Part shown: positions 160-57,027 of the stretch, one piece after another
Position numbering within the stretch: position 1 is the first letter of the stretch
Layout: each line of letters opens with the position of its first letter
NCBI RefSeq assembly: GCF_003018255.1
Contig: NZ_CP027440.1
Strand: one strand, 5' to 3'
Source of the DNA: Escherichia coli
GTDB lineage: Bacteria; Pseudomonadota; Gammaproteobacteria; Enterobacterales; Enterobacteriaceae
DNA: 64,000 nucleotides
The notes under the pieces: generated by a model
What the model saw: the letters and a program-made list of their open reading frames with translations, nothing else
Databases searched by the model: none
What the model was told of the DNA's origin: nothing
Program-made: the position numbers and the translations under genes

Positions 160-176
160 TATAGCGCGGCGATTTT

Positions 177-242
177 TTTGATACCGATTTGCATTTCATT
201 TGATACCGCTGAAAAACGCCGATACGCAACTTATTTGATACT
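177..242. repeat. Right-end transposase-binding site cluster (three TTTGATAC(C) repeats)
   Basis: tttgataccg at 177-186, ttgataccg at 199-207, tttgatact at 234-242; reverse complements occur at the other prophage end. Confidence 0.6.
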
Positions 243-287
243 AAATCGGCGCTTTTCTTTTGAGTTTTAGAATGAGTTTTTAAGCGC

Positions 288-1025
288 TCATTCACTCTCT
301 TTCAAACCAGTTTTAACTGTTTGTGGTTTTGGGTAAGGCTGGACTTTGAATAGCTTTGTGTTGAGGCGTTTTCTGGCCCTCTTGTTCAGAAACCGGATGT
401 AACGAAACTGTCGGAACTTATGCACACTGGCTCTGTCGATATTAGCCCTCAGATGTTCACCTCGTTGTCCGCCTCGTTTAATGGCACTCCTGCAAATCTC
501 GTGATACCACTCGCCATCAAGTTCATAGAATGTTGATTCATGGCTGCCTACATAATCAAAATTGCTTGCCTGATACACGACACCAAGACAGCCACAACGC
601 TCATCTGCAAACGACTGAACCCACTGTACCTGCGGATAAAGCTGCCTGATTAGCTTGAGCGCGTAACTGATTGCCCTTGATTCGGAGTTTCTCGGCATAC
701 AGTCATGCATCCATAGCCGGTTAAGCTCCATATATTCTCGGTTCTGCGTACCCGTTACGACGCGTGCACCACTGTTTGGGTTAAGGGCGTAACCCCATTG
801 CATTACGCCAACAAGTTCCCGTTCTGAAAATATACCCAGATGAAGGTAGGAATTATTTACGAAACGGTGGCTGTAATGTTTATTGACGATAACCAGTCTG
901 GCCAGCCAGCAACTTATTGTCTCAACCCGCAACTCACGGGAGCCATAACCAACGATATTGTCGTTATAGCGAATAAGTTCAGGCGTGCTGATGATACGGG
1001 ATGTGACTTGCTTTCTGTTCCCCAC
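288..1025 (-). CDS. mom: Mom-like DNA modification protein
   Basis: 245-aa ORF at the Mu right-end position, overlapping the 3' end of com as in Mu; assigned by position and resemblance to Mu Mom from memory. Confidence 0.8.
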
Positions 1026-1179
1026 GACAGGATTTCCTTGTGTATGTGGGGTGCTCTGTGGCGCTCGGAGATGTGATTTGATTGAGGGTTTTACAGCGCG
1101 GACATTTTACTTCCAGATAACTGAAACTGGCCCGTGCCAGTAGCTTATTGCAGTGTCGGCACCGTATGTTTCGATACAT
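979..1179 (-). CDS. com: Com zinc-finger translational activator of mom
   Basis: [14 protein letters not shown]...CPRCK matches Mu Com C4 zinc finger; ATG at 1179 preceded by AGGAGG; track start at 1224 is a TTG extension. Confidence 0.8.
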
Positions 1180-2312: not shown

Positions 2313-4361
2313 TTATGCCGCAGGGGTATTAACCTCAAGGACAACGCTCTCAAAAGACACGCCATAAGTTGCCCCTTTGGTGACATCTGTCAGTGTCAGC
2401 GTATCTTTGGCAGGGGAAAGTGCATCTTTCACCATCTGGAATGCCTGGCCCGGAGTGCCATCCAGCACAGGCGTTACCTGGGCACTTCCCGCCGTAAACT
2501 TCAGGACAAGTGTATGCCACTGGTTATTGTAGGCTCCAAATGATCCCAGTTTCGTATTCCCCCCTGTTTTATGGTGCATCAGATTTAACTGGCCGCCTGT
2601 TGTCTGGAGATAATACGCCATCAGGAACGGTGTGCCTGTACCACTCATGGTTACACCTTCCGGGACCGTATCGGTGTGGAGGTAAATACCCAGAGCAAAC
2701 TGGCCTTCTTTTACTTCACCTGACAGACGGAATTTACAGGTCAACTGACCACCATGCTTCAGAAGTTCACCGGCTGCATCAGTTCCATGGGTAAGCGTCC
2801 AGGTTTTTCCGCTTTGTTTGGATACGGTCAACGCTTTACCTTCGTCCGTCAGCTGGATTGTACCATCTGTAATTTTCCAGCCCTGAGCCGGGGCTTCTCC
2901 TGCTGATGCTTTAAGTGAAAGCAGCGTACGGAGTGACGGGGATGTCGGATGGGGGGACTCACTGCCTCCTGGCTGACTACCTGTCGGCGCTTCCGGTTTC
3001 CCACCCGGCGCGGGCTGAGGCAGGGCTTCACCATCAGGGGCCACACCGGCAATAAATGCAGAGGTCAGACCTGCATATTTAAGAATTGCTGATGCAAAAC
3101 GATCTGAGACCAGAAAACGGCGCGCCCAGGAGCTAAAATGGGTTGCCCTGGATGCTGTTGTCCAGTTGCCATCTCCCCGTGATTCCGCACCATAATACCC
3201 GGCAGAAGCGATATCCGGGTCGTGCTCCGGCAGGTTGGTCGCGGTTTTATTACCGAACTCATCGTGCATCAGTGGAACAAAGTGAATGTTCTCGGAAGCC
3301 CGGTTTTTATATCCGCTATAAATGGTTTCATATGCCGCCGGGTTCTTCTCTTTCCAGTCATAGGTTGTGTCACCACATAACCACGGCACACTGTCTGATG
3401 AACCACCAATACACTGACCGGAGAAAGCACCAAGATCCGCACGGAATTTTTTCACCATCGCAGTAAACTGGGCACCATGCTGGGCCGGGGTCGCTTTAAG
3501 GTCTCCTTCCCCCTGAATCCATACGACAGATAACAGCACATTCTTTGGATTCGCCTCAAGTGCCGCTTTAGTTCGACTGACAAGATCCTGATACAGTGGG
3601 GTATCCACTCCCCAGCGTAGTGACGCCTCGGCTGCACCACTTGCCGGATCGAATGAGCCAACTGCGCCGGTTGTAAAAGCAGAGCCGCCACGGGCACAGG
3701 GAACCAGTAAAATCCCGGCATCAGCAGGAATCACCGGTAATACTTTTTTCGCAATATGAAGTCCCTGCCCCACACAACCATACTGCCCTTTTTTCAGGTC
3801 TGCTTTTGGATGGTTCAGCAGACTCATATTCTGAACATCATGAAGGCAGTGATCTGCTGGAATGATTTCATTGTATTTGCAGGGAATACCTCCGGGGGTT
3901 TGTGTATTCCTGCGTGCCAGCTGCATAATACGTGGATCAGGACGATCATAAGAATCCGGAAGGGGCAACCCTTCACCATAAGATGAAGCATTGGACTGGC
4001 CGGCTATAACAATCACGTAATACCAGGAAGGGGAGCTGGAAGCAGTTTCATTTCCTGACGGACGGGTATGTGTTTCAGCATTATCCCAGTCTGACGGTTC
4101 AGCAGTACCGGCAACATCAGCACTTAACGGAATGACCGCACCAATACCCGCTCCGGTAATTTCCACACTCGGATCACCGGATACTGGCCTTACCCACAGG
4201 CAATCCCGTGTATTAAAACTGATGAGACAGTCAGCAAATGTCATTCCTCCTTTTGTTTCGGCCGGAGGAAAGGGAGCCTCAAGAAATGCCGCTGTACCAC
4301 CGGAAACTTTAACAGTAAAGTTTCCGGGCATTGATGATAGTTGAACCCATTTGGACGTCAT
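2313..4361 (-). CDS. SGNH/SASA-family esterase (sialate O-acetylesterase-like) with Pro-rich linker and C-terminal beta-sandwich lectin-like domain; NanS-p-like
   Basis: 682 aa; GQSN nucleophile motif (VIAGQSNASSYG), WIQGEGD block, PQPAPGGKPEAPTGSQPGG linker, Gly/Thr-rich C-terminal domain. Confidence 0.55.
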   Translation of the reverse strand: MTSKWVQLSSMPGNFTVKVSGGTAAFLEAPFPPAETKGGMTFADCLISFNTRDCLWVRPVSGDPSVEITGAGIGAVIPLSADVAGTAEPSDWDNAETHTRPSGNETASSSPSWYYVIVIAGQSNASSYGEGLPLPDSYDRPDPRIMQLARRNTQTPGGIPCKYNEIIPADHCLHDVQNMSLLNHPKADLKKGQYGCVGQGLHIAKKVLPVIPADAGILLVPCARGGSAFTTGAVGSFDPASGAAEASLRWGVDTPLYQDLVSRTKAALEANPKNVLLSVVWIQGEGDLKATPAQHGAQFTAMVKKFRADLGAFSGQCIGGSSDSVPWLCGDTTYDWKEKNPAAYETIYSGYKNRASENIHFVPLMHDEFGNKTATNLPEHDPDIASAGYYGAESRGDGNWTTASRATHFSSWARRFLVSDRFASAILKYAGLTSAFIAGVAPDGEALPQPAPGGKPEAPTGSQPGGSESPHPTSPSLRTLLSLKASAGEAPAQGWKITDGTIQLTDEGKALTVSKQSGKTWTLTHGTDAAGELLKHGGQLTCKFRLSGEVKEGQFALGIYLHTDTVPEGVTMSGTGTPFLMAYYLQTTGGQLNLMHHKTGGNTKLGSFGAYNNQWHTLVLKFTAGSAQVTPVLDGTPGQAFQMVKDALSPAKDTLTLTDVTKGATYGVSFESVVLEVNTPAA

Positions 4362-20534: not shown

Positions 20535-21008
20535 TTAAGGCGTTTCTGTGGCCTTTTTAAAGCGTTTTCTGATTTCGTCCATGATCTCCTGCTCTGCCAC
20601 CTGATCAAAGCCCATATACGGACGTGCACCAATGGCCGCCGGTCCCGGCGGCATACCTGGCAGGCCACCCCACTGATGAATGGCCGCATAAGGCTCATTT
20701 GATCCAATCAGCGCCCAGGTGTCGCCATAATCCGTGGTCAGGCGTCGGGCCAGATCGCCGTTCAGCGTCAGGATTTTGCCGGGCATGTATCCCTTACGGG
20801 TACGCCACTTGCGGTAAGGATCTGACCAGTCATGCCAGCGTTCGCCGTCCGGCTCTTTTTCCTGTTCAAACGCCATTTCTGACGATGACAGAAGGCTGGA
20901 CGCCACACTGCGGGCCAGGTCTTTTCCGCCACCCACAAACTGAAGCCGGGCAAAGACCCGCTGGAGACGCGTAACGTCAACAACGACGGCGGCATCAATG
21001 GATGACAT
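20535..21008 (-). CDS. Virion morphogenesis protein (Mu G-like)
   Basis: 157 aa, position. Confidence 0.7.
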   Translation of the reverse strand: MSSIDAAVVVDVTRLQRVFARLQFVGGGKDLARSVASSLLSSSEMAFEQEKEPDGERWHDWSDPYRKWRTRKGYMPGKILTLNGDLARRLTTDYGDTWALIGSNEPYAAIHQWGGLPGMPPGPAAIGARPYMGFDQVAEQEIMDEIRKRFKKATETP

Positions 21009-21129
21009 ATTGCCTCCGTATAAAATATGAATATAAAATAAGCAGGCGGTCAGTGTACGCTTAACTGGTAAAGTCGGTGCCTGCCTCCGGGTGGATCATG
21101 TATGCGGGTTCGACCCCCGCCACTGACCG

Positions 21130-22461
21130 TTAATCAATATCTCCTTCCAGTACCTCAAGCATTCCGCCCCGGATATCCGATTTCAGCTTATCCATATTGA
21201 TAACCCGGTAAGCATTAACAATCACATCCAGTTTATCCGGCTGACGCTTCAGGCTGTACGGTGCATTAACGGCAATCTGCACACTGCCATCCTGATTTTC
21301 CACGATATACATCAGATTGTTGTGCCGTTTGTCCCACAGTACCGCTTTTGGCCTTGCCAGCATTGCCGGTAAGCGCCCGAAATCCTCCGGTGTCAGGGCG
21401 ATACCGTCATTCTGATGTTTCATGCTGTCCGCATGGAGCACATTTTTACCGCTCATCGCCAGCAGGCGGGCCGGTGGCGTTCCCGTCCGGCTTTCCACCG
21501 CCTGCGCAATGCTTTCGGTCATAAAGCCCAGCGTGCGGATATCGTTACCGCCTCGCCGGGTTTTCATGATGTTTTTTGCCCAGATGCGGAACGCCAGCTG
21601 CCGCTCCGGGCTGTTGTTCATCTCCTGAACCACCATTTCCCGTAACGCCGGGCTTTTCACCTCGATCAACTTGCGGAGCAGCGCCTGGTCTGTGCCGAAC
21701 GCCGCCGAACCGGGGTTATATGACCAGCCCACATCCGGTGTCATGGTTCTGGTGCCATCTGAATATGTGGTCACCGGCATTTCTCTGACTTCTCCGGTCT
21801 GCTTATCCACGCCAGCCTCAACATTGCGGGTGGAAAGATGATCCTGACCGGATGAAACGGATAACCCCATTGCATCCAGACGGGTCTGAGACAATGGCCG
21901 GACACGGCAGCGGCAGTTCCAGCCATTGGGTGGGTAGTGTGTATTCCAGAACGGATCGTCATAGCGGAATACCAGACCGTTAAGGGCGGAATGCGCCGGG
22001 CGGGTGCGGCTGTCCATCACCGCCACATACTGCCAGAACGGATGCGTGTCCGTGTTGTTCATCATCTGCGTGTAACGCCCGGCATTGTAAGCCACGCGGG
22101 TGTTCACGTTGTAAATCAGCGCCAGACGGCGGGGACAGCCCAGCTGCACTTCTTCTGCGTTACCGGCGCTGTCCACCACAATCTGCTTTCCCCACCATCC
22201 CAGCTTTTGCAGGCGGGGGGTCAGTGTGCGGATAAATGCTTTCTGTGAAATCCCCTCATCAATGGCCCGTTGCACTTCCGCCTGTAGTGTGGTCAGTACG
22301 TCCAGGCGTGCCACTTTTGCCGCCGTGAACGAACGGGCATGAACATCCGCGTCTGTTTCGAACCAGTTCCAGCTGATATGCGCCCCTTTGGCGCGGAAGT
22401 ATGCCACCGCCTCTTTTGAGGGAAGCGTGGCGGCATAACCTAAATCAATCCCCTGTGCCAT
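21130..22461 (-). CDS. Minor head protein (Mu F-like)
   Basis: 443 aa downstream of portal. Confidence 0.8.
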   Translation of the reverse strand: MAQGIDLGYAATLPSKEAVAYFRAKGAHISWNWFETDADVHARSFTAAKVARLDVLTTLQAEVQRAIDEGISQKAFIRTLTPRLQKLGWWGKQIVVDSAGNAEEVQLGCPRRLALIYNVNTRVAYNAGRYTQMMNNTDTHPFWQYVAVMDSRTRPAHSALNGLVFRYDDPFWNTHYPPNGWNCRCRVRPLSQTRLDAMGLSVSSGQDHLSTRNVEAGVDKQTGEVREMPVTTYSDGTRTMTPDVGWSYNPGSAAFGTDQALLRKLIEVKSPALREMVVQEMNNSPERQLAFRIWAKNIMKTRRGGNDIRTLGFMTESIAQAVESRTGTPPARLLAMSGKNVLHADSMKHQNDGIALTPEDFGRLPAMLARPKAVLWDKRHNNLMYIVENQDGSVQIAVNAPYSLKRQPDKLDVIVNAYRVINMDKLKSDIRGGMLEVLEGDID

Positions 22462-56951: not shown

Positions 56952-57027
56952 TGGTGCCCGGACTCGGAATCGAACCAAGGACACGGGGATTTTCAATCCC
57001 CTGCTCTACCGACTGAGCTATCCGGGC
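56952..57027 (-). tRNA. pheU: tRNA-Phe (GAA)
   Basis: Reverse complement is GCCCGGATAGCTCAGTCGGTAGAGCAGGGGATTGAAAATCCCCGTGTCCTTGGTTCGATTCCGAGTCCGGGCACCA. Confidence 0.97.

Follow-up and report, generated by a model that had tools for sequence, protein, structure and literature searches.

The window, that is, the whole 64,000-nucleotide stretch of Escherichia coli DNA analyzed here, contained a complete Mu-like prophage (~34–38995) inserted in betT and identical to a prophage of E. coli O157:H7 strain Show KS 470-1. Its phage genes were located nearly all on the minus strand. Between the gene of the gpF-like minor head protein (59% identical to gp30 of phage Mu) and the gpG-like gene, a gap of 121 nt was found, which held a tRNA-like element on the opposite strand; the gpF stop codon lay 1 nt from this element, and the two genes were convergent. 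In the gpF product, the Pfam MuF_C match covered residues 347–429, and two short motifs, LHADSMKH (21415–21438, residues 342–349) and VNAY (21208–21219, residues 415–418), were identified. The features of the region were as follows:

20535–21008, minus strand: gpG-like virion morphogenesis gene (Pfam Phage_tail_S, E = 1e-33), the left boundary of the exchangeable cassette
21000–21400, no strand assigned: exchangeable cassette of ~400 nt (RNA promoter, tRNA-like gene and last ~90 gpF codons), delimited by the identity profile
21010–21039, plus strand: predicted sigma-70-like promoter (−35 TTGCCT at 21010–21015, 18-nt spacer, −10 TAAAAT at 21034–21039)
21048–21128, plus strand: non-decoding tRNA-like RNA gene of 81 nt (Rfam tRNA, 31.0 bits; PGAP "tRNA-OTHER"; family model R1, 87.3 bits)
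21048–21055, plus strand: 5′ strand of the 8-bp terminal (acceptor-like) helix, GGTCAGTG, pairing with 21121–21128 and including G(−1):C73
21059–21074, plus strand: D arm, GCUU / AACUGGUA / AAGU (Rfam D-arm alignment, high posterior probability)
21076–21099, plus strand: central irregular hairpin in place of the anticodon arm (folding; UCCG tetraloop at 21086–21089)
21104–21120, plus strand: T arm, GCGGG / UUCGACC / CCCGC (exact sequence; Rfam alignment)
21121–21128, plus strand: 3′ strand of the terminal helix, CACTGACC
21130–22461, minus strand: gene of the gpF-like minor head protein, 443 aa (Pfam Phage_Mu_F, E = 7e-29, residues 58–187)
21133–21438, minus strand: MuF_C domain of gpF, a predicted BECR-fold RNase

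Homologues of mom and com were found at the right end of the prophage (window 164–1055), and a hypothetical plus-strand ORF (1170–1634) opposes the late genes and may be a further accessory gene.

Structure of the tRNA-like RNA

The Rfam tRNA model RF00005 matched positions 21049–21128 of the plus strand with 31.0 bits (E = 9.4e-5; gathering cut-off 29 bits) over its full length (1–71), and the Rfam search of the element yielded no match other than tRNA. Consequently, the covariance-model check that had been proposed for this site returned a match above the Rfam threshold, and what had originally been described as an acceptor/T-arm fragment is a full tRNA-like gene. RF00005 aligned the acceptor stem, the D arm and the T arm and skipped 24 nt at the anticodon-arm region. 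The NCBI pipeline PGAP annotated "tRNA-OTHER" at exactly this spot in the identical E. coli genome, as well as for the element in many other E. coli genomes, and ARAGORN made no call at the element when run on the window.

The pairing of GGTCAGTG with CACTGACC and the T arm GCGGG-TTCGACC-CCCGC, both named in the original prediction, were exact. A convincing D arm, which that prediction had denied, was aligned by Rfam at 21059–21074 and was invariant across the family described below. The D loop contained the conserved GG, and the conserved loop residues of tRNA (G18 G19; T54 Psi55 C56 R57 A58) were all present in AACUGGUA and UUCGACC. One extra base was located between the terminal helix and the D arm (UAC).

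The central part of the element was different. A canonical anticodon arm (5-bp stem, 7-nt loop, U33, readable anticodon) was absent, in agreement with the earlier reading, and the 29 nt that separate the D arm from the T arm (21075–21103) folded instead as a single irregular hairpin with a UCCG tetraloop. Folding, which had also been suggested as a check, recovered this hairpin and its loop, but the minimum free energy by itself was not significant (z = −1.5), a result that held for either strand. The element likewise did not have a 7-bp acceptor stem with an unpaired discriminator and a 3′ CCA: its terminal helix was followed by GUU, and CCA was not encoded, although it could be added post-transcriptionally. 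The G−1:C73 pair of the window copy resembled the identity element of tRNA-His; however, this pair is not kept as G:C in the family. Lacking a 5-bp stem that carries a 7-nt anticodon loop, the element is not a decoding tRNA but a non-decoding tRNA-shaped RNA, so both "not a functional tRNA" and "a structured RNA element" had been the right designations.

A function on the strand of the late mRNA was rejected, as only the plus strand gave the Rfam match and carried the motifs of the T and D loops. The promoter-like site at 21010–21039 was the only one in the interval 20800–21400 (0.5 expected) and placed the predicted transcript start 1–2 nt before the terminal helix. No terminator-like site overlapped 21048–21128 on either strand or was detected downstream of the element, and an intrinsic terminator or attenuator was excluded because the hairpin is not followed by a T-run. 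The original suggestion of a transcription-attenuating hairpin was thus abandoned: the plus strand has neither a T-run nor a terminator-like site, and the tRNA motifs are on the strand opposite to the late operon and are preceded by their own promoter-like site.

Covariation, distribution and orphan copies

Pattern scans and BLAST yielded 27 distinct relatives of the element, and a covariance model built from these found further members; a pattern restricted to the T arm mostly drew genuine tRNAs of large phages, which were excluded. The family model recovered the same 81 nt of the window with 87.3 bits, compared with only 31.6 bits for the ordinary tRNA-Phe(GAA) gene located at 56952–57027 (minus strand) in the host DNA flanking the prophage.

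Covariation was evaluated for 26 distinct sequences with 500 shuffles and slid-partner controls. Overall, 94% of the cells were paired, 63 cells carried double changes, and none of the 500 shuffles reached the observed covariation. In the 8-bp terminal helix, 97.1% of the cells were paired (39–59% in the slid controls), and changes on both sides were found in seven of its eight pairs, including the −1:73 pair (GC 14, AU 4, UA 4, GU 2 and UG 1). The GGUA of the D loop and the inner pairs of the D stem were invariant, the UUCRA of the T loop was invariant or nearly so, and one pair of the T stem alternated between CG and UA. The central segment formed one hairpin in every member, mostly with a loop of 3–6 nt (UCCG, UUCG, CUUG, GCAA, GGCA and others), often of the stable UNCG, GNRA or CUUG classes. 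A 5-bp stem with a 7-nt loop was found in none of the 26 sequences and in none of the divergent members, and the latter folded unaided into the same cloverleaf. ARAGORN made no calls at the element in the four family loci scanned first and four calls in 26 further gpF loci, all of them atypical.

In about half of the E. coli copies (82 records, 98.9% identity), position 57 of the T loop (window 21112) was changed from G to A (TTCAACC), with loss of the PGAP tRNA annotation and retention of a purine. A purine is required at position 57 of tRNA. Considering the conservation, the covariation and the promoter, the element is very probably a real RNA gene maintained by selection.

Leaving aside the orphans (see below) and a single copy on a phage contig of 111 kb, all copies of the RNA were located antisense between the gpF and gpG homologues. 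The carriers were E. coli-type prophages (gpF 72–100% identical), Alishewanella (~50%) and the Pasteurella phage Pmp9 (45%). A promoter-like −10/−35 pair recurred across the lineages, with the −10 end 7–14 nt before the helix, and its hexamers varied (TATACT, TATAAT, TAAATT, TTGAAC, TTGACT, TTGACA); thus, TTGACT-17-TAAATT was predicted in Pmp9 and TTGAAC-17-TATAAT in another lineage. A blastn comparison with phages Mu, D108 and SfMu revealed nothing similar to the element; in Mu, F and G overlap, and the paper describing SfMu reports no tRNA genes. The plasmid search gave only two matches, both in E. coli records with the same head-morphogenesis gene. Among the species-representative genomes, in which the family was sparse, the strict pattern matched only twice, both times in Alishewanella. 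An additional ORF of 301 aa was observed in an Alishewanella Mu-like prophage between gpG and the protease gene (L039 4137–5042, equal to L046 5725–6630), at the junction at which anti-CRISPR genes are found in Pseudomonas Mu-like phages.

Copies without an adjacent gpF gene were found in three settings. In E. coli STEC17-183, an 8.4-kb island inserted in mdtP (L043 16646–24640; NZ_CP075652.1 2238645–2246638) ended with three tandem tRNA-like genes belonging to three different variants, one of which was 86% identical to that of the window and was annotated as "tRNA-Tyr". The island has the appearance of a Mu-like phage satellite and codes for an integrase, ash, Icd-like proteins, a RepA helicase, SSB, PerC and a Mor-family activator. 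A role of the element as an integration site was ruled out, since the island is inserted in mdtP and its integrase lies at the opposite end. A related copy of the island was present in a second genome, JNEC-KY179. The second setting (L052 2289–5796; also L051 and L059) combined a Mor-family gene, a major capsid gene of the Mu gpT family, DUF2971 and one orphan copy. Two Mu-like prophages are present in the L052 genome as well; L053/L131 has both the RNA and the gpF motif considered below, and L129 has neither. The third was a free-standing family member in Alishewanella aestuarii B11 (L045 1159–1230), separated by ~65 nt from a long type I-F CRISPR array, whose nearest repeat is the degenerate terminal one at the trailer end; the array extended from 1299 onward with a 60-nt period and at least 37 repeats. 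A genuine tRNA-Gly(CCC) gene (359–432) and a small addiction-module-like ORF (781–1056) were also observed in L045.

Tandem copies were found only in the STEC17-183 island and in locus L117, where three tRNA-like genes follow gpF (3851–4156, minus strand). The first of these was called tRNA-Lys(UUU) by ARAGORN, but it had C at position 33 instead of the universal U. This Lys-UUU-like loop may hint at the tRNA targeted by the putative RNase domain of gpF.

Association with the MuF_C domain

[quoted passage not shown] The function assigned to the C-terminal domain of gpF in PMC5512222 is a computational prediction, and Iyer et al. judged the MuF_C of Mu itself to be inactive and predicted its orthologues to be RNases. 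Foldseek and sequence searches against the PDB did not support the fold of MuF_C.

The relation between the RNA and this domain was analyzed in 80 gpF loci from IMG/VR, which were collected with only the N-terminal 300 residues as the query and in which two features were scored, the RNA and, where MuF_C begins, the motif L-x-H-[AST]-[DN]-S-x-[KR]-H. The RNA was present in 52 of the 54 loci keeping L-x-H-A-D-S-x-K-H (49 pattern-matching loci and three with variant motifs that keep the histidine) and absent from all 25 loci without the motif, including that of phage Mu; in these 25 loci, F and G mostly abut or overlap. The reverse combination, the RNA without the motif, was represented by no valid case, as in the sole apparent one (L132) gpF was frameshifted. 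The naive Fisher test gave p = 1.4e-18, a value that overstates the evidence because the loci share ancestry.

The motif without the RNA was found in two loci only, L100 and L102. In the F–G gap of both, another conserved structured element (GACCGCUGGAAAUUAGACGGCGAGCCAG...GGUGAUGGUGGACAGCCGGCCACC; L100 3829–3950 and L102 3829–3935, minus strand of the loci) was observed. It was not matched by any Rfam model and may have replaced the RNA at this position without being homologous to it.

Phages without the RNA were interleaved among RNA-bearing relatives, and at least five apparently independent co-losses of the RNA and the motif were counted by eye rather than on a tree. The gpF identities in four pairs of an RNA-free phage and its closest RNA-bearing relative were as follows:

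Shewanella phage MuM16-1 and L131: N-terminus 99%, C-terminus 46%
L079 and L076: N-terminus 92%, C-terminus 39%
L107 and L110: N-terminus 93%, C-terminus 83%
Mu and L083: N-terminus 83%, C-terminus 50%

In L107, the histidine was replaced by aspartate and Lys-His by Thr-Ser, the RNA was gone, and F and G overlapped. The motif is ~290 nt away from the RNA gene and the coding sequence between them is retained; therefore, the losses occurred in pairs rather than through single deletions. A second conserved motif, I-N-A-Y, was also lost in Mu and MuM16-1. Residues of catalytic type (His, Ser, Lys-His and Asn-x-Tyr) were conserved exactly where the RNA was present. This pattern of co-loss makes it likely that the RNA is functionally coupled to MuF_C.

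Further evidence was provided by the exchange of the region among sister E. coli prophages, which were 54–80% identical over ~21000–21400 and 94–100% identical in the flanks. The divergent block began at the G start codon, included the RNA gene and ended near residue 354 of gpF; residues 1–345 were 95–100% identical and residues 345–443 were 65–70% identical. Among the 24 E. coli-type loci, the gpG-like gene was 98–100% identical in 23, and these comprised every locus with a differing cassette. The RNA variant and the MuF_C variant always switched together in the E. coli prophages, and for close pairs the RNA distance correlated with that of MuF_C (rho 0.87), in comparison with 0.23 for the gpF N-terminus and 0.15 for G. 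Over all pairs, the correlations were uninformative, being about 0.5 for MuF_C, the gpF N-terminus and G alike. The RNA gene and MuF_C are adjacent, and their transfer in one cassette is expected from linkage alone; for this reason, the cassette exchange was ranked below the co-loss pattern as evidence. A second, independent mosaic patch with near-identical flanks was observed in the middle of gpF (window 21700–22000; 38–86% identical in L014, L024 and L026) and was unrelated to the RNA variant.

Possible role of the RNA

The best explanation of these results, which we put forward tentatively and rate somewhat short of an even chance, is that the element encodes a non-decoding tRNA mimic that neutralizes the adjacent MuF_C RNase. 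The RNA would be transcribed from its own sigma-70-type promoter, convergently with the late operon of the phage. It keeps the parts of the tRNA L-shape, namely, the acceptor/T minihelix and the elbow formed by the D loop and the T loop, and the place of the anticodon loop is taken by an extended helix with a tetraloop. The 3′ end is locked in the 8-bp helix and has neither a free discriminator nor an encoded CCA. Both sites at which tRNA-cutting BECR toxins act, the anticodon loop and a free 3′ end, are closed in this form. The MuF_C domain, as a predicted RNase packaged in the virion and ejected with the DNA, may be bound by this RNA as by an uncleavable pseudo-substrate and, we infer, be kept harmless in this way. 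Such an RNA "immunity" or antitoxin would protect the virion-producing cell as well as lysogens exposed to related phages.

A specifically inhibitory action of the RNA on MuF_C is quite possible, if not quite an even prospect, and is favored because the body of a tRNA is kept with both sites of tRNase attack closed, because no protein immunity gene lies in the F–G gap (it contains no ORF longer than 32 aa), and because the orphan arrays resemble sets of orphan immunity genes. It is a more venturesome proposal, to which we give a somewhat lower probability, that this is the first RNA "immunity" to a virion-delivered toxin domain, in which the mimic and the RNase evolve as an exchangeable pair and orphan mimic genes, gathered by satellites and chromosomes, disarm incoming Mu-like phages. 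No precedent for an RNA immunity to a BECR toxin was found, and no paper linking MuF or PBECR to a tRNA-like RNA was found in a literature search in which subscription journals were poorly covered.

It is rather unlikely, though it accounts equally for the co-occurrence, the co-loss and the cassette data, that the RNA is a partner of gpF other than an inhibitor, that is, a cofactor, a chaperone or a cargo (in folding, procapsid entry, or packaging and ejection together with gpF) or the natural substrate that the enzyme processes. An RNA-binding role has been suggested for MuF_C (PMC5512222), and the capsid-related satellite elements carry copies of their own, both of which are consistent with such a partner. 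However, the orphans far from gpF, with three variants in tandem, better fit protection against several toxins, and the conserved residues of catalytic type point to an enzyme that is active and has to be controlled, not to a passive binder.

Regulation in cis is improbable. The transcript, or transcription itself, would proceed into the 3′ end of gpF and damp leaky expression of the late genes in lysogens, with the tRNA shape serving only to stabilize the RNA or to offer a processing site for RNase P. This would agree with the convergent layout, the conserved predicted promoter and the absence of a terminator, from which read-through antisense to the MuF_C coding region would follow. An antisense regulator, however, needs no T loop, no GG in the D loop and no compensatory changes in the helix; the satellite and chromosomal copies have no gpF to oppose, and the disappearance of the RNA together with the histidine motif would be left unexplained.

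We consider it equally improbable that the RNA is an independent accessory gene ("moron") acting as a decoy against a tRNA-targeting defense of the host or of a rival, with the F–G junction being merely tolerant of insertion. Its own predicted promoter and its opposite orientation are typical of morons, and one of the three L117 copies has the Lys-UUU-like loop. In Mu-like phages of Pseudomonas, anti-CRISPR genes are found at neighboring head-gene junctions, and resistance to anticodon nucleases is a known role of phage tRNAs. Nevertheless, a free-riding gene would not be expected to track a motif 290 nt away through several independent losses, and most copies do not have an anticodon-like loop that could serve as a decoy for an anticodon nuclease.

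A decaying tRNA gene or integration scar without a present function, corresponding to the "tRNA remnant" of the original prediction, is scarcely credible: the aberrant anticodon arm, the unencoded CCA, the negative ARAGORN result and the loss of the PGAP annotation in the G-to-A copies might suggest decay, but seven of the eight terminal-helix pairs have changed in a compensatory manner, position and strand are kept where gpF is only ~45–50% identical (down to ~45%), the promoter-like site is conserved, the G-to-A change keeps the purine at position 57, and the copy-bearing island is integrated in mdtP and not at the element.

A non-decoding tRNA mimic that neutralizes MuF_C may be compared with several known systems. 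The element resembles canonical and phage tRNAs (RF00005) in its cloverleaf, its UUCGA T loop, the GG of its D loop and its above-threshold score, and differs from canonical tRNAs in a helix of at least 8 bp with position 73 paired and in having neither a 5-bp/7-nt anticodon arm nor an encoded CCA. The organization of the cassette is similar to that of polymorphic toxins (PMC5576092, PMC3482391; MuF-fused toxins; colicin D and its immunity protein), in which a conserved delivery module carries a variable C-terminal domain of RNase fold, the adjacent gene is exchanged together with the domain, and orphan arrays occur elsewhere. In the present case, however, the putative immunity partner of the candidate toxin domain is an RNA on the opposite strand and not a protein.

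The proposed neutralization of a protein endoribonuclease by an RNA, for which co-occurrence is the evidence here, is analogous to type III toxin–antitoxin systems (ToxIN, CptIN, TenpIN). In ToxIN, the RNA directly neutralizes the protein endoribonuclease. Type III antitoxins consist of short tandem repeats upstream of the toxin gene, form one operon with it and are cut by the toxin, whereas the element is a single tRNA-shaped gene of 81 nt, convergent with the gene of a virion protein that contains the protein domain. It also has a parallel in the phage tRNAs directed against host anticodon nucleases, as a phage-borne tRNA-related gene in a conflict over tRNA cleavage; however, such rescue tRNAs are functional decoders with altered anticodon loops, whereas here the RNA is a non-decoder and the suspected nuclease is the phage's own. 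The use of a tRNA-like fold for purposes other than decoding is shared with mascRNA, the tRNA-like domain of YrlA and the 3′ structures of plant viruses, and irregular allo-tRNA-like genes have been described near toxin–antitoxin loci (PMC5389517). None of these RNAs is related to the element in sequence or context, and none is associated with the BECR domain of a phage head protein.

Proteins of the MuF/gp30 type are present in very many tailed phages, and a partner RNA makes the prediction of their RNase activity concretely testable. If the RNA is inhibitory, a tRNA-shaped class would be added to the RNA antitoxins, and phages could be regarded as capable of carrying RNA immunity to the weapons they themselves inject. 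If the immunity reading is true, many Mu-like phages would inject an active tRNase with their DNA, and the tRNA-like arrays of satellites could be read as collections of orphan immunity genes. The recurrent "tRNA-OTHER" annotation in prophages of Shiga-toxin-producing E. coli would be explained by this RNA family, whose covariance model could be used for genome annotation.
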